64,000 nucleotides of DNA from Candidatus Nomurabacteria bacterium (lineage in GTDB: Bacteria > Patescibacteriota > Minisyncoccia > Phycocordibacterales > UBA918). A program made the position numbers and the translations under genes. Below are positions 26,101-63,702 of the stretch, one piece after another; within the stretch, counting starts at the first letter, position 1, and each line of letters begins with the position of its first letter. The notes under the pieces are model-generated. The model had not been told where the DNA came from. It ran no database searches and saw nothing but the letters and a program-made list of their open reading frames with translations. The DNA is taken from the NCBI GenBank assembly GCA_023898525.1, contig CP060227.1, forward strand, positions 173,634 to 237,633, written 5' to 3'.

Positions 26101-27413
26101 TCATCATTACTTTCAACTTCTTCCATCTCACCAACTTTTTTTGACAAACTTGCAATTACAGATTCCAGCTTTACTTTTTTCTCTTCTAATTCATTACACA
26201 CTTCCTCGGAAGCTTCATTTTTTACAACTTCATTAAATTCTTTTACTATATTTTGACCCTCTTCAATAAATCGTCTTACTGTGGGTGTGGGTGTGGGTGT
26301 AGGTATTTGAGATCTTGTGTTTTTAGCAACACTTTTAGCTTTATTTACTGTATTTTCAAATTTAGACTCAACTAAGCTAAACTCTGAAACAATTTCACTC
26401 TTTCTTTCTGCAAAATCCTGAACCTCTTCTGCTTTTGTATCTGCTACTTCTTTTTGATCTTCAGCACCATTTGACTTACTGGCATCTGTACGTCTGTTTT
26501 TATATTTAAAGTTTTCATCTTTTATTTTTTTAATCAAATCGTATAGACCGTACTTCAATTCTACTAATTTATCTCGAAACGTCCTAGAATTTTGTACATC
26601 ACTATTACTATTATTCAGCAAATTATTAAATTCAACCTCTTTTTGTTTTAAAAGTTTAAGCTTAGAAACCAGAGTTTCTGGTAAGCCATTCAAAATAGGC
26701 TCTGGTAGACTATCTAGATCACCGCCAAAGTTAAGCCTTAAAAAGCCATTATTGAAGTTATCAAAAACTCCAGCGATTTTATTTTTTAGATTCGCATATT
26801 TATCTTCGTTTTTTTCTGGTTGAGCATTACCTTCTTCATTTATACCTTCTCTTTTTTCTTTAATCTCATCCAACTTATCTTTATTTTCTTCAATTAGTTG
26901 ACTAATTGAGCTTATCGTCTCATTGAATAATCGAAAACTCCTCGGAAGTCGATTCTCTATATGATTCTTTAGCAAATTTTGATCAGATTCCCTTAGAAGG
27001 TTGCCTATGGCCATTAGGACAGAATTTGCAGTCACTATATGACTATTCATGAGATGAATAGAATCTCTTAATAATTCAGCATCTTCTTTTATTCTTTCAA
27101 ACTCTTGTCTAGAATTCTCAAGCAACTCTTTTAACTCCCCTACATCATCAGGCAGTTTTTCAGCATCAATTTCTAATTTTAGTTCAACCTCATCTATCTG
27201 AGGTTCTTCTAAGGGCTCGTCTACGGGGTCAGTATTTACTTCTACACCTGAATCTTGCTCGACTGTATTATCGCCATTAGACCTTTCAACCGTTTCTGTA
27301 TCAGAGTTTTCATTTGATTCATTTTCGCCAACATCCTCAACAATCTCAGCGTCCACTATTTCGGCTCCAGGTTTATTAGCTTTTTGAGACAAACTTTCTA
27401 TTCTCATAGACAA
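23136..27413 (-). CDS. giant (1425 aa) coiled-coil membrane protein with C-terminal LysM domain
   Basis: about 720-aa acidic coiled-coil N-terminal part (PTPTPT linker), TM segments (WWVRGGIILGAGVLAGAAAAGVAG; TAATIGAGFLAGGLTGYG), LysM-like HTVVKGDTLWDIVEDRY...IYPGDKINL. Confidence 0.5.
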   Translation of the reverse strand: MSMRIESLSQKANKPGAEIVDAEIVEDVGENESNENSDTETVERSNGDNTVEQDSGVEVNTDPVDEPLEEPQIDEVELKLEIDAEKLPDDVGELKELLENSRQEFERIKEDAELLRDSIHLMNSHIVTANSVLMAIGNLLRESDQNLLKNHIENRLPRSFRLFNETISSISQLIEENKDKLDEIKEKREGINEEGNAQPEKNEDKYANLKNKIAGVFDNFNNGFLRLNFGGDLDSLPEPILNGLPETLVSKLKLLKQKEVEFNNLLNNSNSDVQNSRTFRDKLVELKYGLYDLIKKIKDENFKYKNRRTDASKSNGAEDQKEVADTKAEEVQDFAERKSEIVSEFSLVESKFENTVNKAKSVAKNTRSQIPTPTPTPTVRRFIEEGQNIVKEFNEVVKNEASEEVCNELEEKKVKLESVIASLSKKVGEMEEVESNDEIDGVQKTDNKENGGDGDADEKFEPKADEIPTLQEEIKLRDGVVDAEVGSEDDLSTESEGEVINIDKSTPDKLFDLEESDVATKKEAEFVDMDNEAVETLELSDKEKVELKTKDEKEIELTDYQKAKQDLLFSKVEGTDKTFKEAYQDNKKEYEDAVKNYYANRGGLGKIKDWGKKFLGLKPKLPDNIKVLEDKYKVSRKEYTRKLRLAMKERGKLSVNEEFHKSKLESETAAYLASYNKEKAPKPTGYEQKVDQAFLKKFVLRPGKERLDIQKTEILTEEQAKTVGRVMMKLKKTKWWVRGGIILGAGVLAGAAAAGVAGARMAISSGAALGADQVMSFKVRKAEAKAEKLMEGEDFSVDDIDNYEEEVMQALRKAKAAQSQRTAATIGAGFLAGGLTGYGMSHLGSADQISESVSKATDATSEQIAAALDKNPEILDMLGGEETSSATEAVAGNVGVTEVVDKITVPNYSFSHEQFSTLVKDLSVVGAEDLSGENLVQVESYLRLNTSNLLALHPNMTADNLSETLLGKLEGKFGETDWWQESPITKVEIGSIEKIDASDLASSATAEVNSTAENALNNEVAEAWREHAVDQTTSNVENVENIHTVVKGDTLWDIVEDRYQSELADLSPSERNQVLDALFDKVRADEVLRELANINDTELIYPGDKINLGPLEGELNKLIELEKNDIDLPTSPSSGHLEVVADGSSEEVIPITANHPDIQVSEIAERVEESPLIEFATKPGTSTPVTLAMNDYAQTVAAELVAKDPSIAPYELKAGVWQALTAEAARNPAWDIHSVLKFEVDQTNLNLPSVENVVSANIQPPETYNSDNFFHSPEYKDYALQVFGSEKNLNAAINEATNQVDAGAYDFFDARNHYDSFMSVYGNMTMKEFGDMQYLYDQYGRDYLIHALNNTAPESGQLHYLGRDTVPSSEVHNIKYEAAVAWMDAINNLKQSGLQYTDNTKISDLFSRFVVEHSAQTLANQNVYR

Positions 27414-38003: not shown

Positions 38004-38099
38004 ACAACCACTTGAGTCAAACCAGACTTAAGTGGCTAATAGCCAGAACAATCACAATTAAATATTCCGCCGTAGCTCAGTGGTAGAGCAGTTGGCTGT

Positions 38100-38705
38100 G
38101 AACACACCGTGTTTCAAGCCTGATATACTAAATACAATGAGTGTACCAGACAAAAGAACATATGCCGATCGTGCCGAGTATTTGAAAAAAGCTGTTTCTG
38201 ACAGAAGAAGAAAACTGAAGGAAATGGCAATTGAATACGGGGGTGGCAAATGTCAAATTTGTGGTTATAAAAAATGCAAGAGAGCTTTAAGCTTTCACCA
38301 CAAAGATGCTAACAAGAAAGACTTTGGTCTTTCTGCAAAAGGACTCACTAGATCTTGGAATAAGATCAAGAAAGAACTTGATAAATGCATCCTAGTTTGT
38401 GCAAATTGCCACATGGAACTACACGATGGTATCACGCAGCTTCCTACTGAAAAGTAGGTCGAAAACGAGGTGAATTGCTGGAAGCCTTAGCAAGTAATGT
38501 TGCAGGTAATCAGCAGCCAAGCTTGAGTTGAAAAACTCTTGAAGGTTCAGAGACTATCCTTTATGGAGTACCCAGCTCTAGATTTAATTTTCAAAATTTT
38601 GAAAATTAAATCTAGAGCTGGGGAAGCGCCTCGCATCCAACAACAGCAAAAAACTGAAAAGGATGATGATATAGTCCACCCCTTTTAGAAATATTAGGAC
38701 AAGTG
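38100..38705 (+). mobile_element. group I self-splicing intron with embedded HNH homing endonuclease ORF
   Basis: conserved P (AATTGCTGGAAG 38473-84), Q (AATCAGCAGCC 38508-18), R (GTTCAGAGACTA 38545-56), S (ATGATATAGTCC 38665-76) elements; 26-bp perfect P8-position hairpin 38571..38623; intron preceded by U and ends in G. Confidence 0.75.
38137..38457 (+). CDS. HNH (His-Me finger) homing endonuclease encoded in the 5' peripheral region of the group I intron
   Basis: CQICGY...ALSFHHKD...CANCHMELH (four Cys plus HH...N...H); 107 aa from ATG 38137 (ORF track extends upstream via GTG into the tRNA exon). Confidence 0.7.
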   Translation: MSVPDKRTYADRAEYLKKAVSDRRRKLKEMAIEYGGGKCQICGYKKCKRALSFHHKDANKKDFGLSAKGLTRSWNKIKKELDKCILVCANCHMELHDGITQLPTEK

Positions 38706-38749: not shown

Positions 38750-39825
38750 TGAATAATCTCACATACATATGAGACTCCTTAAATAAGGAGTAATGAGAAT
38801 ACATAACATTTTAAGGAACACCAGAGGGTTTGCCAAAGCGGCTGATAGTGCTCTAAAGTGGCAGACAATGAAAAACAAACAGGAGGTCGAAAGAAGAGTT
38901 AAAATACTCACGTTTTGGCAAAAACATGGTACTAATACCACCAAAGATGCTTTTGGCGTATCTAGACCAACTTTATTTAGATGGCAAAAAGAACTAAATG
39001 ATAGTAATGGTAATATCCAAGCCCTAGACCCCAAGAGTACTGCTCCTAAGAAACGAAGAGTGAGACAGATATCACCACCACTAGAGCAAGCTATTATCAA
39101 CTGGCGTACTAAGCGACCACGGATTGGTGGGAAAAAGCTGGTACCGCTATTGAAGAAGGAAGGATTCAAGGTGTCAGTTTCCTATGTTAATCGCTGTATC
39201 AGTGATCTTAAAGAACTAGGTAGACTACCGAATCCAGTTAAGCTCTCTTGGTACGCTAAGAGTGGTACACACAAAGAACAAAGAAAAACCAAGGTTAAAA
39301 AACAAAGAAGACCACAAAAACAAGGTTTGGAGATAGACACTATCGTGAGACACATAGATGGCACTAAACGGTACATACTCACCGCCATAGACATAGAAAG
39401 ACGGTTTGCTTACGCTCGTACTTATACCAGTCATTCTTCAAATAGTGCTCGAGACTTTCTAAAACAACTTATACACTATACCCCTTTTAGTATAGATGAG
39501 ATACAGACTGATAATGGTTCAGAATTCGCTAAATACTTCCACGAAGCTTGTTTAACTCTTAACATCAACCATTATCACACTTATCCACGTTGTCCTAAGA
39601 TGAATGCCTATATAGAGCGATTCAATCGTACCGTTCAAGAAGAACACATTATTTATCACCGATCCCTGCTTCGAGATAGTATTCCTGACTTCAATGATTC
39701 ACTGAATGAATGGTTGTATTGGTATAACCATGAGAGACCGCATGAAGGACTGGGTCTTTTGTCGCCCATGGAGTATTATAGAGAACATTATGAGATAGAG
39801 TCTCAAAGGTGGTGAGATCGTACAA
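38750..39825 (+). mobile_element. IS481-family insertion sequence, copy 1 (1076 bp), inserted 7 bp downstream of the tRNA-Asn 3' end
   Basis: 100% identical over 1076 bp (compared directly in sequence) to 62627..63702; imperfect terminal IRs around TGAATAATCTCAC / GGTGAGATCGTACAA; possible 5-bp flanking repeat AAATC. Confidence 0.8.
38793..39815 (+). CDS. IS481-family DDE transposase (HTH + rve integrase core)
   Basis: DDE triad context: IDTIVRHIDG..., TDNGSEFAKYF, NAYIERFNRTVQEE; YNHERPHEGLG; 340 aa single ORF. Confidence 0.85.
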   Translation: MRIHNILRNTRGFAKAADSALKWQTMKNKQEVERRVKILTFWQKHGTNTTKDAFGVSRPTLFRWQKELNDSNGNIQALDPKSTAPKKRRVRQISPPLEQAIINWRTKRPRIGGKKLVPLLKKEGFKVSVSYVNRCISDLKELGRLPNPVKLSWYAKSGTHKEQRKTKVKKQRRPQKQGLEIDTIVRHIDGTKRYILTAIDIERRFAYARTYTSHSSNSARDFLKQLIHYTPFSIDEIQTDNGSEFAKYFHEACLTLNINHYHTYPRCPKMNAYIERFNRTVQEEHIIYHRSLLRDSIPDFNDSLNEWLYWYNHERPHEGLGLLSPMEYYREHYEIESQRW

Positions 39826-45039: not shown

Positions 45040-45900
45040 TTAAGCAGCTACACCGACATAATATTTACTAAGTAATTGGTAAGAACTGGACTTATGCCTA
45101 TGTCCACCGGAAGTTGTACCATTAAATAGTTTAGTCGCATCAATACCACAGTTATTGATAATCCTACTCTTACCACCCGGATGATACGGTATATAGTCAG
45201 TTACATCATACACCTTTCCATCAATCGTCATCCAGCAGTCGGTCGAGCTGTTGTGCTTGGCGACAGTAGCGGCGCTAATCCCCGAAGAGGTCTTGGTGGT
45301 GTTTGTGGTGGTGTTGGTAGTATTAGTTGTATTTGTATTGGTAGTAGTCTTGGTGGTGTTTGTGGTTTGAGTTTTAGTATTGGTTGTACCTGAAGTTGAT
45401 TTAACCTCAACCTTAGGTTTGAAACTAAGATCATTAGTTAAATAATTCTCTACCGACCACCCTCTCGTTCCATCGTCATACGATATTCTGTACCACCAAT
45501 AACCATCAGCAGCTACCGGATCTACCAATACTCTCCCAATGGTACCTGGTAACACTGTACCTACTACCCCTGCTTCAATGGAAGGCTCCTTACGAACCTT
45601 TAAACTTTCCATTGCCATTAAAGTATCAAGATCAGTATATTTGGCCGAATCACTTAGTGTATTATCGCCATTAGATTTTTCTTTATCGCCACCAAATATA
45701 CCTTTGGTAATCTCAGATAAAAAACCATTCCCCTCTTCAGAAACACCTTCTGTATCTTCCACCCTTTCAAGCGAATTCATATCTGAAGACATCAGGCCAA
45801 CCTCCGGCGCAGTATTATCATAAACCACAAAAGCCGCCGCCAAGAGAGCAGTAACCACTGACCAAAAGATTGCAACAAAGATAACGAAAGTTTTTTTCAT
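45040..45900 (-). CDS. membrane-anchored SH3b-like domain / poly-Thr-Asn linker / cytochrome b5-like haem-binding domain protein
   Basis: SH3b-like VRKEPSIEAGVVGTVLPGTIGRV...WWYRISYDDGTRGW; TTNTTKTTTNTNTTNTTNTT linker; b5-like HNSSTDCWMTIDGKVYDVTDYIPYHPGG. Confidence 0.5.
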   Translation of the reverse strand: MKKTFVIFVAIFWSVVTALLAAAFVVYDNTAPEVGLMSSDMNSLERVEDTEGVSEEGNGFLSEITKGIFGGDKEKSNGDNTLSDSAKYTDLDTLMAMESLKVRKEPSIEAGVVGTVLPGTIGRVLVDPVAADGYWWYRISYDDGTRGWSVENYLTNDLSFKPKVEVKSTSGTTNTKTQTTNTTKTTTNTNTTNTTNTTTNTTKTSSGISAATVAKHNSSTDCWMTIDGKVYDVTDYIPYHPGGKSRIINNCGIDATKLFNGTTSGGHRHKSSSYQLLSKYYVGVAA

Positions 45901-45917
45901 AATAAATACATTCTACC

Positions 45918-47234
45918 CTACAAGAGCTTAAATTCTTCGGTATGAATCAAGCGACGCGGTACCCCAGCGGCAGTAAATTGCTTAATTAAACCCTGCATCA
46001 TTGGCGGCGGACCACAGACGAATATGTCAGTGTTGGAAAGGTCACCACTGGTACTCTTTATGACGTCCGCTGACAAAAAACCTTTCTCATCTGATTGATG
46101 AGGAATAATACTAATATTAGAATTTTCTTCACTAATAGCCTTAAGTTCATTATAAAAAACCATTTCATCCTCTGTTTTGGTCGCATAATAAAAATCAATT
46201 ACCAAGTCATCACGTTGATTTACCCTTAAGTTGCGTGCCATGTTAAGAAACGGAGTAATACCAATACCACCTGCTATCCAGATTTGACGCCCGCACTTGC
46301 CTTTAAGATAAGAAAAGCCACCAAACGGACCCTCAATCCTCGCGGTTGCTCCCGCGTTTAAGTACTTAAGTTGACCAGTCCAGTCACCAAGCGCTTTTAC
46401 AGAGATGCGCAAATATTTCTCTGTAGGTGCCGAACTAATCGAAAATGGATGCACTTCTTTGGTCATACCACCATCCACAAAACTAATAAAAATAAATTGT
46501 CCGGGCACATAATGCATTACTTCATTTTCTGGACGCATAACTACCTCAATAATACCTTCCCCTAAATCATTGACCGCTTCAACTATATACGTATATCTTT
46601 TCTTAAACGCATGACCGAGCAGAGTATGATAAATATAAGCAGCAATAGCTAAAGCAGCCAGACTAAAAATATATACTTTAAGCCAAGGATTGATTGACAC
46701 ATCGCTCGGAATCAAAAAAGCATGCAAAGCGCCAAGAAAAAAAGCCCCACCCAAAATCTGATGGGCAAATCGTAAGTACTGATAACGCCACTTGGCGAAG
46801 AAAGTAATAACGAGAAGCGACATCATAAGTAAAAGTCCTAGGATACCGAAGTTTACCGCCCAGTCACCACCAGGAATAAGTAGCTTAGCGGCTTCAACTA
46901 CAGATATAGGCACGAGTGCCACGGCCAGAGCCAATGGGTGCACTAAGATAAAAAGAAAAGCAATCGTCCCAGAATAGTGATGTATCCGATAAACCCGATC
47001 CAGACTCCCAAAGTATTCCTCAAGAAAATGCAATCTGGCACTAAGGATAATTGTAAGAGAAAAAAGTGTAATACCGACAAGAGCAGTTAATTGCCCAACA
47101 CTGGTGAGAGCGGAAAATGAGTCACCAAATCGCATAGACAACGGCATCATGGTGAGCCACATAAACATAGGCAATAAAGTCGCCAAAATAACAACTGTCA
47201 ATCCAACCCGATTTTTAAATATCCTTTGTGGCAT
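45918..47234 (-). CDS. ferric reductase/NOX-like flavocytochrome (6-TM di-haem domain fused to FAD- and NAD(P)H-binding FNR-like domains)
   Basis: His pairs in TM helices (HHYSGTIAFLFILVHP; HQILGGAFFLGALHAF), HPFSISSAP (FAD-binding HPF motif), AGGIGITPF (NAD-binding GGxGxxP). Confidence 0.6.
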   Translation of the reverse strand: MPQRIFKNRVGLTVVILATLLPMFMWLTMMPLSMRFGDSFSALTSVGQLTALVGITLFSLTIILSARLHFLEEYFGSLDRVYRIHHYSGTIAFLFILVHPLALAVALVPISVVEAAKLLIPGGDWAVNFGILGLLLMMSLLVITFFAKWRYQYLRFAHQILGGAFFLGALHAFLIPSDVSINPWLKVYIFSLAALAIAAYIYHTLLGHAFKKRYTYIVEAVNDLGEGIIEVVMRPENEVMHYVPGQFIFISFVDGGMTKEVHPFSISSAPTEKYLRISVKALGDWTGQLKYLNAGATARIEGPFGGFSYLKGKCGRQIWIAGGIGITPFLNMARNLRVNQRDDLVIDFYYATKTEDEMVFYNELKAISEENSNISIIPHQSDEKGFLSADVIKSTSGDLSNTDIFVCGPPPMMQGLIKQFTAAGVPRRLIHTEEFKLL

Positions 47235-47374
47235 ATGTTTTTATGATTATACGCTAAATGGATAAAAAACGAAGAGCCTGAAATCATTTGCTTACAAGAA
47301 ATAAAAGCCAACCTCAGTGATGAGATTAAAAAGATCCACTGATATTACTTATATTTTAATTCCGCCGAGAAAAA

Positions 47375-48829
47375 CTAGTCCGTGGTCTTTACCGCACCAT
47401 TGTCTGATTCGACTGCAGTGGTAGCCACACCAAAGTCATCTAGCAAGTTTTTTCCTGAGTCAACAACCACATCTTCATCAATTTCCAAATCGTTATTAGA
47501 AGTCTCAACAAACTCGTTGGTTGGAGCAAAGATATCCGGTCGCGGGTCACCCTCGACTTTAATAATCGCCCACGCCCCCTTATTCATACGAGCTAGAGCG
47601 TGGTCAACTAAGATGATATTACCTGGTACTTCAGCGGTAAATTCAACAATCGAAGCCCCGCCCGGCAACACCGCGGTAGTTTGGATATTTTGTAGTGGCA
47701 ATGCCCCAATTCCTCCCTCAGCATAAACTAAATCAAAAATCTCACCAATTGGATGGAACGAAGAAATTAAATTCACACCACCATTACCAACGTAAATACG
47801 CACCTTCTCTCCAGTCTTTACTTTCATACGCGGCTCCCCATCCTTTTCAATTCGTCCGTTGAAGGTCACGTAGTTTGGATTACCGTCGAGCAAAGCCTCT
47901 GAGTCAAACACCGTTAGACCCTTTTTACCCAAGGCGCCCTTAGTATATAGTTCGCCTTGTACTAAATAAAACTCTTTATCAACTGGTGGCAGACCTTCCT
48001 TTGGTTCAACCAAAATAAGTCCGTACTGGCCGTGAGAATTGTGAGTACTGACATTCGGCGAGGCGCAGTGATAGATGTATAAACCGGGATTCAAAGCTTT
48101 CCAAGAAAATTGTTTGGTTTCTCCAGGCTCCACAAACGAAAGAGTGGCTCCACCTCCTGGACCTGTAACAGCGTGTAAGTCTATATTATGCCCATGTAAA
48201 CTGGATTCATGATTGGTAATAGTCATCTCTACCGTATCGCCCTCCCTGACTCGAAGCATCGGACCCGGTACCTGCTTATTAAAAGTCCAGTAATTAAAAT
48301 ACACTTCATCAGCCACTTCTGATATTACTTCTTGGGTCACCAATGACACTTTTACCGTTTCACTCCAATCTCTATCAATTGGTGGCGGCACAGCATTTGG
48401 ATCAGCTCCAATGTCATCTACCCACTCAAAATTACTGTAGCCTTGGAAGAAATGTAAAACATTTCTAAAAGGCAAATCTGCCGTATGACCGCCCGGATGA
48501 TAACTGTGCATAAAGGCCGGCATGGCAAAGTGCGGCGGATGAGTTTCGTCACCCCACACGTAAAAAATTCCGCCAGTTATAAAAAGCGCCATGGAGATAG
48601 CCAAAGGTTTTGAATGAAAACGATAAGCCACCCTCGCTACAAAGAAAATCGAGGAGCCGATAAGTAGTAAAATGCCTATTTTTTGGAGTAATTCGTATTG
48701 AATCAACGGAAAAATTTTAAAGAAAGACAAAGCTCCCAAAAGAACCACTACCAGGACTATTGACGCAACAATTATTAAATAAAAAATAAAAGACTTTGAT
48801 CGGCCTTCATTTTGTTTTTCTTCATCCAT
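47375..48829 (-). CDS. nirK: copper-containing nitrite reductase (NirK)-like two-domain cupredoxin protein with N-terminal 3-TM extension
   Basis: SLHGHNIDLHAVTGPGGGA (NirK HNxDxH type-1/type-2 Cu region) and YIYHCASPNVSTH (Cys-His Cu site); axial position appears as Gln rather than Met. Confidence 0.55.
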   Translation of the reverse strand: MDEEKQNEGRSKSFIFYLIIVASIVLVVVLLGALSFFKIFPLIQYELLQKIGILLLIGSSIFFVARVAYRFHSKPLAISMALFITGGIFYVWGDETHPPHFAMPAFMHSYHPGGHTADLPFRNVLHFFQGYSNFEWVDDIGADPNAVPPPIDRDWSETVKVSLVTQEVISEVADEVYFNYWTFNKQVPGPMLRVREGDTVEMTITNHESSLHGHNIDLHAVTGPGGGATLSFVEPGETKQFSWKALNPGLYIYHCASPNVSTHNSHGQYGLILVEPKEGLPPVDKEFYLVQGELYTKGALGKKGLTVFDSEALLDGNPNYVTFNGRIEKDGEPRMKVKTGEKVRIYVGNGGVNLISSFHPIGEIFDLVYAEGGIGALPLQNIQTTAVLPGGASIVEFTAEVPGNIILVDHALARMNKGAWAIIKVEGDPRPDIFAPTNEFVETSNNDLEIDEDVVVDSGKNLLDDFGVATTAVESDNGAVKTTD

Positions 48830-48947: not shown

Positions 48948-49796
48948 TTATTTAAACAATTTAGTAATATCATCAATATACTTGCCGTAGGAGCCGAAGT
49001 TATAAAAACGAGACCACAAGGCCGGTGAACCAAGGTGACTAAGATAATCGAGTAATTTAACTTTACTGCCATCGGGTAAGGTAATAATTTTCATATGCAC
49101 CTTCTCAGACACCAATTGCATCGTACATTCACCAGTCACCGGATCAAAATCATCAAGGTGATGCCAAGTATAACCTTCTGGTTTTTTTGCCAGGTCTGCC
49201 GCGGCGTTAGCCAGCTCATCGTCAACACTTCTGATTCCACTCATCTTAATTTTAATCTTTGCAAAAAAAGACTCGCCTTGATAAATAACCGGTTCTTCAA
49301 GATAGATAGTTTCAGCCAAAGAGGTATAGTCGGGAGCAAAACCACGCTTTGACGCTTTTATTTCTAAACCAAGATACTCACGAGCTTTTTCTACATCAAA
49401 TAACCAACCTTCGTCCTCTAATTCTCTGATTATTTCTCTTATGTATCGTTTCTTGGTCGCTCGTGACAGTCGATAAACGTTCATAAAATTCTCTAGTTGA
49501 GCTTTGGTACCACGACAAAGCATCTCGCCCGCTTCGGTGAAAAGATCGATTCCACCAGAAAACCTTCCCCGATAAACAACCAATCGATAAGCCATCTTAG
49601 TTTCTTTCATGAAAGCCACTGACTCATCTCCAATCGTTCGGAATAATGCAATTGAATTTTCACCGAAAGAATCCATTCCGATAGCCATCACATCTTCCAT
49701 GTAGGCTGGGATATTTTTTGCATATACAAAAACATCTTTAAAGCGCGCTCGCCCATTATCAACAACACCGTAGATGAATTCAATACAAAAAGACAT
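48948..49796 (-). CDS. protein with C-terminal Tox-WHH (HNH/EndoVII-fold) predicted nuclease domain
   Basis: GYTWHHLDDFDPVTGECTMQLVSEKVH matches the WHH toxin-nuclease signature (YTWHH...MQLV...H); N-terminal 200 aa unassigned. Confidence 0.45.
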   Translation of the reverse strand: MSFCIEFIYGVVDNGRARFKDVFVYAKNIPAYMEDVMAIGMDSFGENSIALFRTIGDESVAFMKETKMAYRLVVYRGRFSGGIDLFTEAGEMLCRGTKAQLENFMNVYRLSRATKKRYIREIIRELEDEGWLFDVEKAREYLGLEIKASKRGFAPDYTSLAETIYLEEPVIYQGESFFAKIKIKMSGIRSVDDELANAAADLAKKPEGYTWHHLDDFDPVTGECTMQLVSEKVHMKIITLPDGSKVKLLDYLSHLGSPALWSRFYNFGSYGKYIDDITKLFK

Positions 49797-49798
49797 AA

Positions 49799-51547
49799 TC
49801 AGGTACGTATCTTACAAATAGCACAACCGTCTTCAGCTGTTTTAACCAAAGCCATACCAATATCATCCAGCCAAGATTTTAGTTTGCTACTGGTTGTACC
49901 AATCTTGCCGGCAACCTCTGCAATATACTCCATACCCAAAGTAGCTGCTTTTTCAATGACCAAGAAGATTTCACGAATAGCAGTACGAATCGCTGCTCTG
50001 CCACCTCTTAGGACACTGATGATTTTTCTAATAATTGGCAGTATGGTTTCAATAGAAAATTTAGTAATTCCACCTAGAACTGTATTGATTGAAGCTTTCA
50101 AAAAAGCTAGCACATCCTCTCCTATCTTACCCATCTTGGTGAGAAGCGAACTTACGCTACTCATACCACCGGAAGAAATAAGACCTACCACCAATTCCAC
50201 TATAAAACCAACAATCGCGCCGACCATATACGCTACTTTATCAAGCGTGATATCAGCAGTAAGAGCACTGAGATTGAAACTACTAACTTCTTCTACAATA
50301 GTATCTATCGCCTCGCTAAATATTCCGGAAATATCTGCACTTAAAACCGTCTGCACCATTTCATCAAGTATCTCTAGAGCTTCTGGTATTACCGTCGCGG
50401 CATTTTTAATCGCTTCCCCCGCCGCTCCTAGAGCGACAAAGATCCAACCAAGAAGATCGATAAGTCCAAGTACCGCTTCAACCAAAGCATTCCAAAGACC
50501 ACAAAAATAAGCGTTAATAGCACTAATTACTTGCTCACCAACATCAGCCAAAGCTCCGACCGCCGCCTCAACCTTAGCGGTCAATTCGGCGGCAAAGATA
50601 TCTACCTTGGCAAACACGCTATCTAAAATATAAGTGATATCTTCAGATTGCACCAAAACTGCAGCGTATGATTTTGACATAGCGGTCCGAACATATGACT
50701 CTAAATCTCGTTTACGACTATCAATCTCAGCTCTAATGGTACGACTAATATCTTCAATTAAATCTTCGGATAAAGATTCAAAGGAATTAACAGCTAGGTT
50801 TGAGTAGTGAGTAAGAATCGGCGAATAACCAGCCTTGCTTGAATCCCAATGCTTTTCTTTAAACTTGACCTTATCTCGCAGAAACTCGGTAACCGCTAAA
50901 ATACCGTCTCCAACAAGGGAGTAAGCGCCTGACAGCAGTACTGTCTGCCAGTTGAGGATCATCAAGAAAGTAGCCAAAAATTCCATTGATGGATCCTCTA
51001 TCCTACCGGTACGAATCAGCTCTGATATTTCTGCACCGGTAAAATCAAGACTGTATCCTTGGTCATTTTGATTTATAAGACTAATGATTTCCATTTGCTC
51101 ACCATCAAAACGAGCCGCTTTTTCCCTGAGACCTTCCAGCTCATTCTTGAAATCATCACCAACCGCAATATAAGCCGTGCGTCCACTAAACAAATCCTTA
51201 CTATTATCTTCTAAGAACAAGCATATTTCATTTGACAGAGGCTCGGCGGCCGTAAAAGCCTCCTTAAGATAACCAGCATCGCGCGATACAAAGACCCACA
51301 CCTTATACTGATACTCACCCGGATCCAATGTCTTATTTCCATCTCTATCCATGAAAGCCCAAAATTCCTTAACCAATGGGGTTGATACATTTGTCTCTGC
51401 CACCAACTCAACACCACTAACTTCTTCGCTCTCAGCACTACCGAAATAATATTGTTTTATATCATCACTACCAAGACTAAAGGGCGAATCAGCCAAAGGG
51501 CTAGTGTAACGCAAGGTTGCCAGATCTTTTTCTGAGGATAAGGACAT
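49799..51547 (-). CDS. 582-aa hypothetical protein with long Ala/Ile/Val/Gly/Glu-rich amphipathic and hydrophobic helical C-terminal half
   Basis: operon partner (3-nt gap to the WHH gene, 17-nt gap to the 1126-aa gene); hydrophobic helices such as VGAIVGFIVELVVGLISSGG. Confidence 0.35.
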   Translation of the reverse strand: MSLSSEKDLATLRYTSPLADSPFSLGSDDIKQYYFGSAESEEVSGVELVAETNVSTPLVKEFWAFMDRDGNKTLDPGEYQYKVWVFVSRDAGYLKEAFTAAEPLSNEICLFLEDNSKDLFSGRTAYIAVGDDFKNELEGLREKAARFDGEQMEIISLINQNDQGYSLDFTGAEISELIRTGRIEDPSMEFLATFLMILNWQTVLLSGAYSLVGDGILAVTEFLRDKVKFKEKHWDSSKAGYSPILTHYSNLAVNSFESLSEDLIEDISRTIRAEIDSRKRDLESYVRTAMSKSYAAVLVQSEDITYILDSVFAKVDIFAAELTAKVEAAVGALADVGEQVISAINAYFCGLWNALVEAVLGLIDLLGWIFVALGAAGEAIKNAATVIPEALEILDEMVQTVLSADISGIFSEAIDTIVEEVSSFNLSALTADITLDKVAYMVGAIVGFIVELVVGLISSGGMSSVSSLLTKMGKIGEDVLAFLKASINTVLGGITKFSIETILPIIRKIISVLRGGRAAIRTAIREIFLVIEKAATLGMEYIAEVAGKIGTTSSKLKSWLDDIGMALVKTAEDGCAICKIRT

Positions 51548-51563
51548 GGGAAATTAAAATTGA

Positions 51564-54500
51564 TTATGGGTTTTCATCCGTATCGGTATCAGTGTCGACA
51601 TCTGTATCTGCATCCTCATCGGTTTCGTCGCTGCTTGACCCACCCAAGACAGAGGAAGAACCGAGCAATTGTGTGTCACCCTCGTACTTTCCACAACACG
51701 GCAAACCTTCATCATCCAGATAAACAGAATTGCCCTGAATAATGGTTAACGAAGTTGGAACCCGAGTTTGCCACTCTTCCTCAACAAAACCTTCCACCTC
51801 AGCCAACTCCTCTTCAATTGAAAGATAAAGATCATCATCAGTCTCGATTACCAAGTCTCCTCCGTTCCAGATGTCACCAGTCTCTAAATAATAATCAATC
51901 GCTGATTCAAAACCGATGCGTACCGGCACCACCACTCGCGCCATACCACTTTGCAAGAAAGCTTCAAAAGTCTCGTCTGATTCGTTCAGAGTATTTACCA
52001 AATTAGCCCAGTCACACTTACCGGCCCAGTAGTAAGGATAAAATAGATACGACATAATACTCCAATCAAAAGCTTGTTCGAAGAATTTCACATGTGATGA
52101 ATACTCTTCCCAACTTGAGCTTTGGTTTACTTGTGGCACGTTACAGTACATACTATCTTGGTAAAAATCTTGTCCCTGAGTTATTCCAAATGGGCTAGTC
52201 AACATCTCTATTGCCACTCGTTTGATCTCTCGCTGCTCAATACTACGGTATGAGCTAGACGGAATCGCCCCAGCCACCTCTTCCTCACTACTACTTAGAG
52301 CCGCTTCTTGCTCGGCCACATCACTCTCATATTCACGAAGCGCCTCTTCGTAAGCATCAAGCAGACTGTCATAAGCATCAGATTGCCAAGCTGCATACTC
52401 ATCAGGATCAATCTCACAATTCAAGGTAACATTTAAACTGTAGCTTAAAGTACGATGTCCGGAAATTGCCACCTCCACCAAGTCACCAATTGGCTCATCC
52501 ATGTTTAAGGTAAATGAATAATCCTTATGTCTATCATCATTACCGCTTCCTTTAACATCTTTTGTCCAAACCTCACTTCCAACAGTAATTCGCCAGTTGG
52601 TGCCAACATTCTTTTTTGAATCATAACGAAACGAAACACTGACATTAGCACTGGTACACTGATAGCCAGCCGGTAGAGCAACTTGCCCACCACCGGTGAA
52701 TTCGTCACCTTTATCTAAATTTGAAGCATTATATGTCTTAGAGGTCGAACTGGTTTCCGTCTCTGGAGCACTGATAGTAATACCATATTCGGCTGCTAAT
52801 TCTTCGTAGTTTGGCTCATCATAACCCTCGATATCAGATGGTCCCTTAATACCCAGATCTGCCAAAGTTGGTGGTGGAGTAATGCTGGCGATTTCTTCTT
52901 CAGTTACACCACTAGCTTCTAGCGCTTGCTGTTCTAGAGCAAATTTATAAAACTTAGCCGGTTCAGGAATCAAGAATTCTACCATCAGTCGCTTGCCGTA
53001 GTTTATAAGTCGATTAACATAAACAATATCGATCCAACGATATACACCGGTCACATGTTCGTCACCCTCACGGTTGTCATAGCCATGACGGTTGTTTTCC
53101 TCATACTCTTCAAGCATTTTGACAGTTCGTTTATAAGAGGTCTTTTGAACAATACGTTCAAGCGCGTTGTTTACCACTTCTTCAGCATAAGTCTTGGCGT
53201 CAGTGTCTGAGGTGGAAGCAGAGTTAGCAGAAGCGTAATCAAAATTACCTTCCGCCGATACAGTAACGCCCATATACTCACCAGACACACCAGCCGAGGC
53301 TCCCGCCCCAAGATCCGTCCCCTTTTCCAGCACCTTAGCAATTTCTGACTGCAACTCATTGCGTACCGTTGATGAAGTGTCGGTCTGATTTTCAACTTCA
53401 GATTCAGTTGACTCTTCAGTGGTAGTCTCAGTCGATGACAGAGTTCGAGTATGTCGCTCTTTGTACTCACGTGCCATAATATTTTCAATCCGTGATACTT
53501 CACCCGGCACATAACAACAAACCTCTTGTTCAACCTTACGGAAAATACCAATCCCGAGTCGATTAACCCCATACAATTCGGTTGATCCCTCCTCAGTTTC
53601 CTCTGTCTCTTCGGTTTCTTTAGTGCCTTTGCCAACACCAATTGAAGGTAGTTCAGGTATTATGTTTGGAATCTCGAGCTCCATTTCAGATCCATCATCG
53701 AAAATAAATTTACCGGTAAAACCAAAATTATCATCGGTTGAAGTGTCTATGTCCTTACCTGGAAAAAGTTTAAGGTTCAACAGACTATCGTCATTCTCCA
53801 CTATCTCCACCTCCTTTCCTGAAGCGACTTTTGTATTACCTTTCTTTAAACTATAAGAAACTGAGGTGGGCTTGGCCCCAACTGTGTTAGTGTTAAGAGT
53901 AAGAAAAACATCCGACCCAAGGTCATCTGCTTCGCTTATAGTTAAGTAAGAGGTAAAAGGTTTTATGTCTGCATTACCGTCATACCGCAGAGCCCCAGTA
54001 TCTCTAGCTACACTATGCAGTTCGCTCCGAGTCCGACGGATAGAGCTATTCAAGTCACTTTCCAGTGCTGTAACGGTTTTCTTTTTAGTGTTGCTGCGAT
54101 CAAAAAAATCCTTGGCGGTGGTACTTAAAGATATCTTTTTGGATACAATTTCTGATCCAACAGCCGCAATCGTAGCATCCTCATCAACCTTACTACTCAC
54201 TAAAGATACGTCATTCTTTAGAGTTTTATAAGTATTTAAACGACTTTTGCCACGCGCCATCTTTTGTGAACGACCAAAACGATCCAATATACCCCCTTTA
54301 CCAAAACCAGAACCAGCTGAGGTACTACTATCGGTTTGTCGTTCGGTCGAAAAGGCCTTTGGTATCACCACCTTAGCATTAGCCAATCGACGCAGATAGA
54401 GTTCGACCCGCTTCTCTTTTGACGGCGACTTTGGAGTCCGCGGAGTTTCTATCAACTCAACTGCCAAATCTTTAAAATCAGTTTCCTTAAAGTGGTACAA

Positions 54501-54944
54501 GAAATTATCCGCTACTAAAAGACGACTGCAAGCCTGCCTAGTGACCGGCGAGTCTCGTACAATAAGTTGATAAAAAAGGTTATCCCACACAACCCGAGCG
54601 TTCTTTGCGCTAAGACCATTTAGACCAGCCAGCTTTTTCTCTACATCAGCTAAAGTAATACTGGCTCGCCGTTTAGAAAGCCAATGCGAAAAATCATATA
54701 ATCCTGGTGCCAATTCCCGGACCTCTCGATAAGTTTTTATCGACTTGAATTTTTTAGCGGCTGACTGCAATTCTTCTCGGGCCGTCGGCAAATCATCGCT
54801 AAGGTCTTTAATGATCAAACTTTTAGCACTTAATTCAGAAGATATATAAATAAAACCCGAATCACGGCGGGCAGGGTCTAAAAGTTGAGGTGTTCTAAGG
54901 GTAAAAAAACGAAAAAGATCGCTAGTGACAGGTCGTTGTTGCAT
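51564..54944 (-). CDS. 1126-aa hypothetical protein with acidic DTDVDTDTDTDENP C-terminal tail
   Basis: long uninterrupted ORF with no recognisable motif, first gene of the three-gene operon. Confidence 0.4.
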   Translation of the reverse strand: MQQRPVTSDLFRFFTLRTPQLLDPARRDSGFIYISSELSAKSLIIKDLSDDLPTAREELQSAAKKFKSIKTYREVRELAPGLYDFSHWLSKRRASITLADVEKKLAGLNGLSAKNARVVWDNLFYQLIVRDSPVTRQACSRLLVADNFLYHFKETDFKDLAVELIETPRTPKSPSKEKRVELYLRRLANAKVVIPKAFSTERQTDSSTSAGSGFGKGGILDRFGRSQKMARGKSRLNTYKTLKNDVSLVSSKVDEDATIAAVGSEIVSKKISLSTTAKDFFDRSNTKKKTVTALESDLNSSIRRTRSELHSVARDTGALRYDGNADIKPFTSYLTISEADDLGSDVFLTLNTNTVGAKPTSVSYSLKKGNTKVASGKEVEIVENDDSLLNLKLFPGKDIDTSTDDNFGFTGKFIFDDGSEMELEIPNIIPELPSIGVGKGTKETEETEETEEGSTELYGVNRLGIGIFRKVEQEVCCYVPGEVSRIENIMAREYKERHTRTLSSTETTTEESTESEVENQTDTSSTVRNELQSEIAKVLEKGTDLGAGASAGVSGEYMGVTVSAEGNFDYASANSASTSDTDAKTYAEEVVNNALERIVQKTSYKRTVKMLEEYEENNRHGYDNREGDEHVTGVYRWIDIVYVNRLINYGKRLMVEFLIPEPAKFYKFALEQQALEASGVTEEEIASITPPPTLADLGIKGPSDIEGYDEPNYEELAAEYGITISAPETETSSTSKTYNASNLDKGDEFTGGGQVALPAGYQCTSANVSVSFRYDSKKNVGTNWRITVGSEVWTKDVKGSGNDDRHKDYSFTLNMDEPIGDLVEVAISGHRTLSYSLNVTLNCEIDPDEYAAWQSDAYDSLLDAYEEALREYESDVAEQEAALSSSEEEVAGAIPSSSYRSIEQREIKRVAIEMLTSPFGITQGQDFYQDSMYCNVPQVNQSSSWEEYSSHVKFFEQAFDWSIMSYLFYPYYWAGKCDWANLVNTLNESDETFEAFLQSGMARVVVPVRIGFESAIDYYLETGDIWNGGDLVIETDDDLYLSIEEELAEVEGFVEEEWQTRVPTSLTIIQGNSVYLDDEGLPCCGKYEGDTQLLGSSSVLGGSSSDETDEDADTDVDTDTDTDENP

Positions 54945-55202
54945 GAGTTGTGCTTATTAAATTAAAACTTTTAATTGCGTTCAACCATGCCACCAAGCCC
55001 CCCACTACCGTTGCGCATTACTGGTTAGTATAGCCAGACATCTTTAAGCATGCAAAAAAAATCTGTGGAAGCGCACATTCACTACTTCAATAATCCACCT
55101 TATTTAATTTTTACCCACACTAAACATGTATAATAAATAAATATTTACCACACATACCTTCTTGTATAGGATTGGTAAAATTATTTTTAATATTAAATTG
55201 TT

Positions 55203-55619
55203 ATGTCAAATTTAAAGAAATGGATTTTGTATATCCCGGCTTTAATCTTAGTATTTATTTACGCTGGACACGCTTGGGGTGGACTCATGCAAGACCCGGA
55301 GTTTATTGAGTTAGTAGGTACCTTAGGATTTAGTGAAGAAATAACTAAATATCTAGTTTACCTTGTATTTATATTGGATGGTGCGGTTGTTCTACTTATT
55401 CTGTTTGGTAGTCGTATCACTAACCTTTCCTGGAAATTTGTTTATCTCTGGGCTGGACTTTGGCCATGGATTCCACGCTATCTGGAAATACAAGGCGGAC
55501 ATGAGTCAGAGTGGGGTGAGGCTTTGTTTATAACCATACTAGCTTTCATCGCTTACAAGCTCCACACCACCAAAAACATAAAATTGTTCCCAAAGAAAGA
55601 ACAATACTTGTACCAGTAA
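55203..55619 (+). CDS. membrane protein (138 aa, 4 TM)
   Basis: hydrophobic ORF followed by an intrinsic terminator. Confidence 0.3.
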   Translation: MSNLKKWILYIPALILVFIYAGHAWGGLMQDPEFIELVGTLGFSEEITKYLVYLVFILDGAVVLLILFGSRITNLSWKFVYLWAGLWPWIPRYLEIQGGHESEWGEALFITILAFIAYKLHTTKNIKLFPKKEQYLYQ

Positions 55620-60293: not shown

Positions 60294-61290
60294 CACCCTA
60301 ATTGCACAGGTCAAGATGACATACATACTGCTTTTGTATGTCACACAAACAAATAGGACCGGAAGACTGGCCGGTTATTTCACGTATGCTCAAAGCGGGA
60401 TACTCAGGAGTGGAGATTGCGCACATTATCAACAAAGATCCAAGTGCGGTTAATAGACATATTAAAGCGTATGGTGGTCGGGATAGATACGATGCTCGCG
60501 AGGTTCGCAGAAAGAAAAAACAGGCACGTATCATTGCTATGGAAGGTACTAGAATACTCAAAGGAGTATTATTACGAGAAGTGAAACGATTATTAAAACA
60601 ACACTACTCACCGGAACAGATAGTCGGAGTACGTGATGACATCTCTGCGAGCACTATCTACCGATACATTAACGAACGAGCTCCACACCTTAAACAATTT
60701 CTTCGTTCTCAGAAAGGCAAGTATCGGCGCAAACGAGGCACCAAAATACGTGAAAAAGTTCGTGAAAGAGCCAAGAAACGTCGTATTGATGAACGACCGC
60801 CCATTATTGAACGTCGCTCCCGTTTGGGAGATTGGGAGGGAGATACTATGCTGGGAAGAGACAAACGAGTACGTATTGTCACCTTCGTTGATCGCAGAAG
60901 CGGGTATCTAATTGCGTATCTTCTGCCAAAATTAAATGCTACTTTACTCACTAAACTGGCGGTGGAAAAATTCAGGCGTATACCCAAAAACAAACGAAAG
61001 ACCGCTACCTTTGATAACGGTACCGAGTTCAGTGACTGGGAACGGTTTGAGAAACAAACGAGTATGACTGTGTACTTTGCTTATCCATACCACTCTTGGG
61101 AGCGTGGTACCAATGAAAATACTAACGGGCTACTTCGACAATATTTTCCGAAAGACTTGGATTTCAACACCATTACTCCACAAGAACTTTCTGAAGCGGT
61201 TCGTCGTATAAATCATCGTCCTAGAAAGAGACATAATTTCAAGTCTCCACATCAGATATTTTGGAAGTGATGGTCTGTGCAATTAGGGTG
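60294..61290 (+). mobile_element. IS30-family insertion sequence (997 bp) with 16-bp perfect terminal inverted repeats CACCCTAATTGCACAG; an extra 15/16 copy of the left IR lies at 60271..60285
   Basis: IR at 60294..60309 equals the reverse complement of 61275..61290; contains a single IS30-type transposase ORF. Confidence 0.75.
60338..61270 (+). CDS. IS30-family DDE transposase
   Basis: N-terminal HTH; DWEGDTM (first Asp), FDNGTEF (second Asp), ENTNGLLRQYFPK (Glu), INHRPRK; 310 aa. Confidence 0.85.
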   Translation: MSHKQIGPEDWPVISRMLKAGYSGVEIAHIINKDPSAVNRHIKAYGGRDRYDAREVRRKKKQARIIAMEGTRILKGVLLREVKRLLKQHYSPEQIVGVRDDISASTIYRYINERAPHLKQFLRSQKGKYRRKRGTKIREKVRERAKKRRIDERPPIIERRSRLGDWEGDTMLGRDKRVRIVTFVDRRSGYLIAYLLPKLNATLLTKLAVEKFRRIPKNKRKTATFDNGTEFSDWERFEKQTSMTVYFAYPYHSWERGTNENTNGLLRQYFPKDLDFNTITPQELSEAVRRINHRPRKRHNFKSPHQIFWK

Positions 61291-62626: not shown

Positions 62627-63702
62627 TGAATAATCTCACATACATATGAGACTCCTTAAATAAGGAGTAATGAGAATACATAACATTTTAAGGAACACCA
62701 GAGGGTTTGCCAAAGCGGCTGATAGTGCTCTAAAGTGGCAGACAATGAAAAACAAACAGGAGGTCGAAAGAAGAGTTAAAATACTCACGTTTTGGCAAAA
62801 ACATGGTACTAATACCACCAAAGATGCTTTTGGCGTATCTAGACCAACTTTATTTAGATGGCAAAAAGAACTAAATGATAGTAATGGTAATATCCAAGCC
62901 CTAGACCCCAAGAGTACTGCTCCTAAGAAACGAAGAGTGAGACAGATATCACCACCACTAGAGCAAGCTATTATCAACTGGCGTACTAAGCGACCACGGA
63001 TTGGTGGGAAAAAGCTGGTACCGCTATTGAAGAAGGAAGGATTCAAGGTGTCAGTTTCCTATGTTAATCGCTGTATCAGTGATCTTAAAGAACTAGGTAG
63101 ACTACCGAATCCAGTTAAGCTCTCTTGGTACGCTAAGAGTGGTACACACAAAGAACAAAGAAAAACCAAGGTTAAAAAACAAAGAAGACCACAAAAACAA
63201 GGTTTGGAGATAGACACTATCGTGAGACACATAGATGGCACTAAACGGTACATACTCACCGCCATAGACATAGAAAGACGGTTTGCTTACGCTCGTACTT
63301 ATACCAGTCATTCTTCAAATAGTGCTCGAGACTTTCTAAAACAACTTATACACTATACCCCTTTTAGTATAGATGAGATACAGACTGATAATGGTTCAGA
63401 ATTCGCTAAATACTTCCACGAAGCTTGTTTAACTCTTAACATCAACCATTATCACACTTATCCACGTTGTCCTAAGATGAATGCCTATATAGAGCGATTC
63501 AATCGTACCGTTCAAGAAGAACACATTATTTATCACCGATCCCTGCTTCGAGATAGTATTCCTGACTTCAATGATTCACTGAATGAATGGTTGTATTGGT
63601 ATAACCATGAGAGACCGCATGAAGGACTGGGTCTTTTGTCGCCCATGGAGTATTATAGAGAACATTATGAGATAGAGTCTCAAAGGTGGTGAGATCGTAC
63701 AA
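62627..63702 (+). mobile_element. IS481-family insertion sequence, copy 2 (identical to copy 1, same orientation)
   Basis: 1076 bp identical to 38750..39825 by direct comparison; flanks differ; possible short flanking repeat AGCTT/GCTT. Confidence 0.8.
62670..63692 (+). CDS. IS481-family DDE transposase (identical to 38793..39815)
   Basis: identical 340-aa translation. Confidence 0.85.
   Translation: MRIHNILRNTRGFAKAADSALKWQTMKNKQEVERRVKILTFWQKHGTNTTKDAFGVSRPTLFRWQKELNDSNGNIQALDPKSTAPKKRRVRQISPPLEQAIINWRTKRPRIGGKKLVPLLKKEGFKVSVSYVNRCISDLKELGRLPNPVKLSWYAKSGTHKEQRKTKVKKQRRPQKQGLEIDTIVRHIDGTKRYILTAIDIERRFAYARTYTSHSSNSARDFLKQLIHYTPFSIDEIQTDNGSEFAKYFHEACLTLNINHYHTYPRCPKMNAYIERFNRTVQEEHIIYHRSLLRDSIPDFNDSLNEWLYWYNHERPHEGLGLLSPMEYYREHYEIESQRW

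Follow-up and report, generated by a model that had tools for sequence, protein, structure and literature searches.

A three-gene module in a Candidatus Nomurabacteria genome, probably a mobile polymorphic-toxin system built on undescribed carriers

What would a three-gene unit that ends in a predicted nuclease, and that has no immunity gene beside it, be doing in the genome of a Candidatus Nomurabacteria bacterium? The unit lies in a 64,000-nucleotide stretch of contig CP060227.1 (assembly GCA_023898525.1, positions 173,634 to 237,633), which we call the window and whose numbering is used throughout. An earlier note, made from the sequence alone, had singled out three minus-strand open reading frames (ORFs), here genes A, B and C, as a candidate toxin or defence module. 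An ORF check agrees exactly with the coordinates and lengths proposed for all three. Their tight spacing also holds, although the spacers measure 16 nt from the A stop to the ATG of B and 2 nt from B to C (TGA-TT-ATG), rather than the 17 and 3 nt first reported. Our reading, to which we assign a probability of about 0.6, is that A, B and C constitute a toxin module, self-contained and horizontally mobile, from a polymorphic-toxin family with undescribed carriers.

The C protein matches the Pfam WHH profile PF14414 over residues 204–237 (E=1.5e-9, 37.9 bits against a cut-off of 25.1) and the Colicin-DNase profile PF12639 over residues 149–236, equivalent to profile positions 4–91 of 96 (E=1.1e-7, 33 bits against a cut-off of 25). 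With both matches above their cut-offs, the WHH nuclease signature that had been seen in C is not there by chance. The Tox-WHH signature as defined comprises WHH, L, H and HxG (Zhang et al. 2012, PMC3482391). The C-terminal part of C reads GYTWHHLDD...MQLV...H...HLG, with W211-H212-H213 (49158..49166), L228 within MQLV (226–229), H234 and H254-L-G256 making up the signature, and these residues are kept in 24 of 24 aligned relatives. A sequence and profile search of the PDB with C gave no credible homologue. Judged from its sequence, C is a WHH-type HNH DNase cassette with the active-site signature intact.

Gene B has no significant match in Pfam, NCBIfam or PADLOC, and a sequence and profile search of the PDB found no homologue. 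Word-indexed searches with the single B sequence and with its alignment returned only 8 proteins for this repetitive composition, and an exhaustive profile search was used instead. It gave 345 clusters among 1.84 billion representatives, which fall into two length classes. The B profile covers positions ~1–550, and variable tails lie beyond it. The tails on 60 long B proteins include Tox-MPTase4 (11), EndoU (4), Peptidase_C39 (4), YwqJ-deaminase (3), WHH (2), the ADP-ribosyltransferase exotoxin ADPrib_exo_Tox (2), Toxin-deaminase (2), MafB19-deaminase (1) and ART (1). In three Tenacibaculum loci (L066, L072 and L074), the whole of C, with both of its domains (hidden Markov model, HMM, positions 28–269), is the C-terminal part of B. 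Because of these whole-C fusions and the interchangeable toxin tails on long B proteins, we read B as a polymorphic-toxin carrier and C as one of its cassettes, detached here as a separate gene.

In the C-terminal half of B, Ala (13%), Ile (13%), Leu (11%), Val (10%) and Gly (8.5%) are abundant, much as the earlier note had described. Two hydrophobic segments within B are the most conserved motifs of the family. Both are hydrophobic enough for a membrane span. The first, residues 348–380, has a Kyte-Doolittle 19-residue mean of up to 2.22, and the second, residues 439–457, carries the conserved residues Y440, G443, G447 and E451. Two conserved hydrophobic helices fit the suggestion that B is a helical, membrane-active partner. 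B proteins of the window's type, which we call split, also end in a tail of two predicted strands (565–571 and 574–579) with an invariant last Cys and, in most cases, a CxxC. This tail is missing from the fused forms, in which the B profile ends at about position 545–560. Nearly all split-type C proteins have a Cys at position 2–4, and none of the fused forms does. It is possible, from these sequences, that the split B tail and the N-terminal Cys of C form a docking device. In the window, the CxxC of B is C575/C578 (49814..49825) and the Cys of C is Cys4 (49785..49787). A has two invariant Cys-Cys pairs, C476-C477 (53511..53516) and C1083-C1084 (51693..51698). Conserved cysteines are located at ends and junctions, and those of A, B and C could form a shared metal site or a covalent link among the three proteins.

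Comparison with relatives was based on 82 A loci in which ORFs were called and searched with iterated B and C profiles. The gene after A belongs to the B family in 42 of these loci and is another partner in 31; in the remaining 9, the contig ends too early. The 42 A+B loci comprise 17 with the window layout (a B protein of ~600 aa and a separate WHH protein), 2 with a split-type B and no WHH protein, and 23 with a long B of 650–914 aa. The earlier note had asked for co-occurrence in other genomes, and A, B and C are indeed adjacent in 17 of the 82 loci, as well as in Maribacter and on a metagenome contig. Small ORFs directly after WHH modules are SUKH-1/SMI1_KNR4 proteins (E from 4e-14 to 8e-24), and the SUKH family, which is the classical immunity family for HNH toxins (PMC3482391), occurs in 41 copies across the loci, often in arrays. 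SUKH-1 follows 3/3 fused WHH forms and 4/17 split forms. L066 also carries an orphan cassette, a 400-aa protein made of the B tail (HMM 446–552, its last ~100 residues) and C, followed by a 153-aa SUKH ORF; L054 and L081 carry fragments. Of the two possibilities raised for this module, toxin is much better supported than defence, as evidenced by the C–B fusions, the SUKH genes, the orphan cassettes and the varied toxin tails. A and B are unannotated families tied to toxin cassettes rather than ordinary cell-envelope proteins.

Two features had been flagged as atypical for a polymorphic toxin, namely that the nuclease is a separate ORF and that an immunity gene is lacking. Both are real, and together they define a recurrent subtype that accounts for 13 of the 17 split-type loci. 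In the window, the next gene after C is the NirK-like multicopper-oxidase gene, 118 nt downstream, and as the earlier note had stated, there is no immunity-like small ORF between them. No SUKH-family ORF of ≥40 aa is present anywhere in the window, and no Pfam immunity family was found among the ORFs tested across the flanking ~23-kb island. A conserved downstream immunity candidate was also sought in the SUKH-less loci, and none was found. C lies in frame −1 relative to B, and a frameshift that would fuse the two was considered; it was rejected, as the sequence contains no slippery site and the spacing varies among relatives.

Homologues of A number more than 416, all annotated as hypothetical. 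There are 297 confirmed loci among GTDB species representatives, mostly in Bacteroidota; further hosts are Planctomycetota, Desulfobulbaceae, Hydrogenophaga, Gammaproteobacteria, Chlorobiota and one Saccharibacteria metagenome-assembled genome (MAG), whose copy is 75% identical. A core spanning residues ~460–1080 extends farther. In a tblastn search of plasmids, it is found at 27–34% identity in Bacillus thuringiensis, in Tsukamurella and Streptomyces, in Sinorhizobium, Ensifer and Cupriavidus, and in the haloarchaeon Natronorubrum, again always as a hypothetical protein, and each time with a different next gene. Judged by sequence, A is the constant upstream gene from Bacteroidota to the candidate phyla radiation (CPR), and homologues of its core extend into Gram-positive bacteria and a haloarchaeon.

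The partners of A vary. The core homologue lies with a patatin-like phospholipase gene on a Natronorubrum bangense plasmid (L090, 4291..9346) and on a Chryseobacterium plasmid (L089, 2996..10359); a B-family protein also partners A in a Chryseobacterium plasmid. From the patatin-like pairings, it follows that A can have a partner other than a B-type toxin, and that the superfamily spans the boundary between bacteria and archaea. A second partner family of ~790 aa, in Dokdonia and Tenacibaculum, is unrelated to B (profile-profile probability 0.3%), and therefore A pairs with at least two unrelated carriers. Short A forms of ~840 aa cover only the C-terminal ~57% of A, and in Bacteroidota they are followed by a protein of ~350–380 aa and then one of ~215 aa. 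The larger of these is GH19-like in L025 (3019..4717); in L035 (12493..14276) it has no significant family match and the small protein is DKNYY-like. In L032 (13505..15886), A is full-length and the next gene encodes a 793-aa HET-C protein. By sequence, the genes after A in these three loci look like further effector and immunity pairs.

The A protein itself gives no significant match in four profile libraries (Pfam, NCBIfam, PADLOC and PHROGs), in keeping with the view that it has no assignable motif. It has no hydrophobic segment and no signal peptide. Searches of PDB sequences with A and with its core returned nothing credible; the best match of all the PDB searches, those with B and C included, was OtDUB at E=0.026, which was disregarded. 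An AlphaFold2 model built on 63 sequences (predicted local distance difference test, pLDDT, 75.4) shows in order a helical N-terminal domain, a beta-sandwich, a conserved middle block, a jelly-roll, a coiled-coil hairpin, a conserved alpha/beta domain and an acidic tail. The motif LFRFxxLRxP, at residues 6–15 here (54900..54929), lies 5–12 residues from the start of every A protein. It is kept in distant homologues from Bacillus, Sinorhizobium, Tsukamurella, Streptomyces and Chryseobacterium, and also at ~30% identity in other phyla; no A protein has a signal peptide. The fixed N-terminal position of this motif suggests a targeting or docking signal. The middle block is modelled as long hairpins and helices, with a conserved Ser/Thr/Gly-rich stretch that AlphaFold2 leaves unplaced (pLDDT <50 at 485–525 and 543–576); its invariant residues are common to the Bacillus, actinobacterial, rhizobial and haloarchaeal homologues. 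After the alpha/beta block come an invariant GLPCC motif and a disordered acidic tail (51567..51689, pLDDT <50), which had been noted before and ends in ...DTDVDTDTDTDENP.

Nucleotide homology with a contig of the Saccharibacteria MAG runs from 54949 to 48947 of the window at 68.6% identity. Because this homology starts and stops at the module ends, we take the three-gene module itself to be the mobile unit, probably acquired horizontally. Between the two copies, the rate of nonsynonymous substitution (dN) is 0.19–0.24 and synonymous sites are saturated, and therefore A, B and C have been under purifying selection since the CPR copies diverged. The core of A is 91–93% identical between the two CPR copies; its variable domains are 44–58% identical. 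The module had been described as part of an island bounded by insertion sequences (IS). Two identical IS copies do bracket 22.8 kb around it, but the unit shared with Saccharibacteria is the three genes only, and the IS pair is not the mobiliser. The short flanking repeats differ per copy (ATC and GCTT), and the sequences suggest independent, recent insertions. These separate repeats, and a shared unit of no more than three genes, led us to reject a composite transposon. The bracketed stretch also holds the NirK-like gene and ferric-reductase, cytochrome b5, PEBP, MatE, YkuD and C39-like genes.

In the mechanism that we propose for a toxin module, B and C would associate non-covalently, perhaps with the CxxC tail found only in split-type B contacting the N-terminal region of C that bears the Cys. 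Membrane insertion of B's two conserved hydrophobic helices would bring the nuclease to the other side, much as has been proposed for other toxins with such helices. A, a soluble multi-domain protein, may hold, export or target the B–C complex; candidate binding surfaces on it are the variable beta-sandwich and the C1q-like jelly-roll. The target would be another cell, either a competitor or possibly the host of this episymbiotic lineage. As there is no immunity gene, the nuclease would have to be held inactive in the producer by other means, and the complex itself may keep it harmless.

Several observations weigh against this reading. The absence of an immunity gene is unusual, judging from sequence, for a DNase aimed at other bacteria, and 13 of the 17 split-type loci, the window among them, have neither a SUKH gene nor any other conserved downstream gene. 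The window also has no orphan toxin cassette and no poly-immunity array. Without an immunity gene and without orphan cassettes, it lacks two defining features of a polymorphic-toxin locus that its relatives possess. Neither Pfam nor NCBIfam finds a trafficking or secretion module in A or B (signal peptide, two-partner secretion, PAAR/VgrG, WXG/LXG, MafB-N, PVC or TcdB/TcaC), there is no hydrophobic N-terminus either, and no secretion-system genes are conserved across the 82 loci. The hosts of the module have very different envelopes, so that export is assumed. No PDB entry matches the global fold of the A model, and the B model, with a pLDDT of 60, is too poor for use. The specific role given to A is accordingly much less certain than the overall toxin reading, since it is read only from gene order and domain shapes. 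Finally, the Maribacter module adjoins McrBC and a type I restriction-modification system.

A broader proposal is more tentative, and we hold it as a minority view. The A-core superfamily (~600 residues, in Bacteroidota, CPR, Proteobacteria, Actinomycetota, Bacillota and a haloarchaeon), whose genes always have a variable effector gene as neighbour, may be the key part of a self-sufficient machine for effector delivery or activation that is independent of known secretion systems and works across different envelopes. The window would then hold its minimal form, made of a partner, a membrane-inserting carrier and a detachable nuclease, with self-protection residing in the complex.

The alternative that survives best, though we consider it unlikely, is that the split, immunity-less subtype works inside the cell, as an abortive-infection or anti-phage system recruited from polymorphic toxins, with A as a sensor, B as a membrane-active scaffold or effector, and C degrading DNA. 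A suicide effector needs no immunity gene, and the 13 loci that lack one would be explained, as would the absence of a signal peptide or link to secretion. A compact, mobile three-gene unit that is spread across phyla would also fit, as would the pairing of the A core with patatin-like phospholipases in the haloarchaeon and in Chryseobacterium, an effector type also common in defence. Defence genes lie within 6 kb of ~3/14 split-type loci (McrBC with type I restriction-modification in Maribacter, IetAS and MzaA in two others), counts that come without a background rate. Most neighbourhoods, however, are ordinary, containing TonB receptors, sigma/FecR genes, type IX secretion cargo and glycosyltransferases. 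PADLOC-DB v2 gives no significant match for A, B or C, the only hit being a partial one of A to a type I specificity subunit (E=0.012), and A has no recognisable NTPase or sensor domain. Moreover, SUKH genes, poly-immunity arrays and orphan cassettes are retained in 4 of the split-type loci and wherever WHH is fused to B. Such features typify toxins that pass from cell to cell, and they argue against an anti-phage role.

Decay would be another way to account for the missing immunity gene, and we rate it lower still: the module could be the remnant of a polymorphic-toxin locus that has lost its immunity, and could now be inactive or re-used inside the cell, for example in DNA processing. Horizontal acquisition into a region with several IS copies is compatible with such a history, and CPR genomes are not known to carry any of the established contact-dependent delivery machines. 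Yet the three ORFs are intact, the catalytic signature is kept, and the substitution pattern between the CPR copies is that of selected genes. The same immunity-less layout recurs in 13 loci of several phyla and is therefore a maintained design rather than decay.

It is very improbable that A and B derive from a phage or tailocin, B as a tape-measure protein and A as a tail-fibre or baseplate protein with a nuclease: residues 310–569 of B do match tape-measure PHROGs (best phrog_305, E=1.8e-8) and a Foldseek search with the A model returns phage tail and tail-fibre proteins as weak matches (best E=8e-7, TM score ~0.1), together with jelly-roll fibre heads, but the PHROG matches are weak, partial and fall on Ala/Gly-rich hydrophobic helices, the structural ones are confined to one ~110-residue domain, tblastn finds no A homologue in 50,697 phage genomes, and the module is free of neighbouring phage genes, both here and in relatives. 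With partial profile matches and no tail gene cluster around it, a tape-measure identity for B was rejected.

The coordinates of the module, its domains and the flanking elements are collected in Table 1.

Table 1. The three genes, their domains and flanking elements, in window coordinates.
Feature	Position	Strand	Size	Description
Gene A	51564..54944	(-)	1126 aa	Large constant partner; family without annotation
A residues 1-320	53985..54944	(-)		Helical N-terminal domain; pLDDT ~90 for 30-200; missing in the ~840-aa short A
A residues 330-441	53622..53957	(-)		Variable beta-sandwich (predicted strands); low conservation; 58% identity to the Saccharibacteria copy
A residues 455-675	52920..53582	(-)		Most conserved block: VEQEVCCYVPGEVSRIENIMAREYKER ... 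HVTGVYRWIDxxY...NYGKRLMxEFxIPEPA; column conservation 0.55-0.91
A residues 730-845	52410..52757	(-)		Jelly-roll of C1q/TNF/small-capsid type (structure matches)
A residues 928-1069	51738..52163	(-)		Second conserved block, alpha/beta: FFEQAFDW...YPYYW...FLQSGMARVVVPVR; conservation 0.64-0.83, invariant columns
Gene B	49799..51547	(-)	582 aa	Putative carrier of polymorphic-toxin family, split type, without a toxin domain of its own
B residues 345-380	50408..50515	(-)		First hydrophobic helix or hairpin (NAYFCGLWNALVEAVLGLIDLLGWIFVALGAAG); most conserved motif of the B family
B residues 439-457	50177..50233	(-)		Second hydrophobic helix (AYMVGAIVGFIVELVVGLI); Kyte-Doolittle mean 2.34
B residues 565-582	49802..49855	(-)		Short beta-hairpin tail ending ...GCAICKIRT; only in split-type B
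Gene C	48948..49796	(-)	282 aa	Putative detached toxin cassette
C residues 1-148	49353..49796	(-)		Second domain; aligns with all relatives
C residues 149-282	48951..49352	(-)		WHH / colicin-DNase-like HNH nuclease domain
Upstream intergenic region	54945..55202	(-)	258 bp	AT-rich; holds the region's best promoter-like site
IS copy 1	38750..39825	(+)	1076 bp	340-aa rve/rve_3 DDE transposase; ~5 nt after the tRNA gene
IS copy 2	62627..63702	(+)		100% identical to copy 1; direct orientation, 23,877 bp apart

Upstream of A, the 258-bp intergenic stretch is AT-rich, as claimed earlier, with a GC content of 0.32 against 0.42 in the module. The promoter-like site TTGACA-18-AATAAT at 55209..55180 (-) matches 11/12 positions, and the number of such sites in the region is not above chance; as a candidate promoter of A, it is suggestive only. 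Directly downstream of the module lies a redox cluster (45040..48829, minus strand), here in a CPR genome. The NirK-like multicopper oxidase in this cluster has an extended membrane region at its N-terminus. The other members are an FAD/NAD protein that resembles ferric reductases and a cytochrome b5 protein that also contains an SH3 domain and whose Thr/Asn-rich linker is encoded by 9-nt periodic repeats (45281..45397). A third, different transposase (rve integrase core and helix-turn-helix domains) is located inside the ~23-kb stretch at 60338..61270 (+). The tRNA gene that precedes IS copy 1 is tRNA-His-like (anticodon GTG) and spans 38066..~38745 (+). It is split by a group I intron and was missed by ARAGORN. 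The intron matches Rfam RF00028 at 38388..38698 (69 bits), with the 5' exon starting at 38066 and the 3' exon ending at ~38745. An ORF within the interrupted tRNA (38080..38457) has a weak HNH match (E=0.0018) and may encode a homing endonuclease. Two more very large ORFs, both on the minus strand, lie elsewhere in the window at 23136..27413 (1425 aa) and 27442..30213 (923 aa).

Polymorphic toxins are a main currency of microbial warfare, and new delivery routes, such as contact-dependent inhibition (CDI) and the effectors of the type VI and type VII secretion systems (T6SS and T7SS), have each opened a field. Here, many toxin cassettes hang on two unannotated families with hundreds of clusters, the effectors being of DNase, RNase, deaminase, ADP-ribosyltransferase, peptidase and lipase type, and one of the families, A, reaches Gram-positive bacteria and archaea. 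The immunity-less form, with its three genes, is small enough to rebuild in Escherichia coli, and could show how a cell holds an intact DNase without an antidote. The presence of the module in two CPR (Patescibacteria) genomes, and its movement as an exact unit, lead to the testable idea that episymbionts use borrowed toxin cassettes against hosts or rivals.

Polymorphic toxins of the Tox-WHH type and their SUKH immunity proteins are already known (Zhang, Iyer and Aravind 2011, PMC3113570; Zhang et al. 2012, PMC3482391). The toxin domain of C and its signature are alike to theirs, and so are, among the relatives, the downstream SUKH-1 genes, the swappable C-terminal toxins, the orphan cassettes and the immunity arrays. 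A and B, however, fall outside the trafficking modules listed for those systems (T2SS, T5SS, T6SS, T7SS, PVC and TcdB/TcaC; PMC3482391), and the toxin of the window is a separate gene without an immunity gene. Colicin DNases of the E2/E7/E9 type resemble the module in having a C-terminal HNH-type DNase (PF12639), no signal peptide, and an upstream helical region that may serve membrane translocation. They differ in that the window has no immunity or lysis gene, in that the toxin is spread over two genes plus a 1126-aa partner, and in that A and B have no sequence similarity to colicin translocation or receptor-binding domains.

In T6SS effectors such as Tse6 and the prePAAR/Rhs class, the toxin follows hydrophobic helices that are shielded in the producer and thought to help it cross the target inner membrane, and a soluble partner is co-encoded. 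The module is alike in having conserved hydrophobic helices ahead of the toxin and a soluble partner gene. It contains no PAAR, VgrG, Rhs or Eag domains, however, and no T6SS genes are nearby; CPR bacteria are not known to have a T6SS. In CDI loci, the CdiB/CdiA layout of two-partner secretion is likewise comparable: a constant partner stands beside a polymorphic toxin gene, and further on come (in relatives of the window) immunity genes and orphan toxin-immunity cassettes, which have a short region in common with the main gene. In contrast to CdiB, A lacks both a signal peptide and the beta-barrel or POTRA architecture of a transporter, and the B family, at 600–900 aa, has no filamentous-haemagglutinin repeats.

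The TANFOR-domain toxins of Bacteroidetes are single large proteins with an N-terminal TANFOR domain. They resemble the present families in being abundant in Bacteroidota and in having an N-terminal region outside the classical secretion classes (PMC7073777), whereas A and B match no NCBIfam or Pfam model and their constant element is a separate gene. We found no description of A or B in the literature that could be searched, which covered the motif, toxin families of Bacteroidota or CPR, and patatin partners in archaea. What is known, then, is the toxin domain and the immunity family, and what is new is the carrier B, the partner A and the split, immunity-less form in which they occur here.

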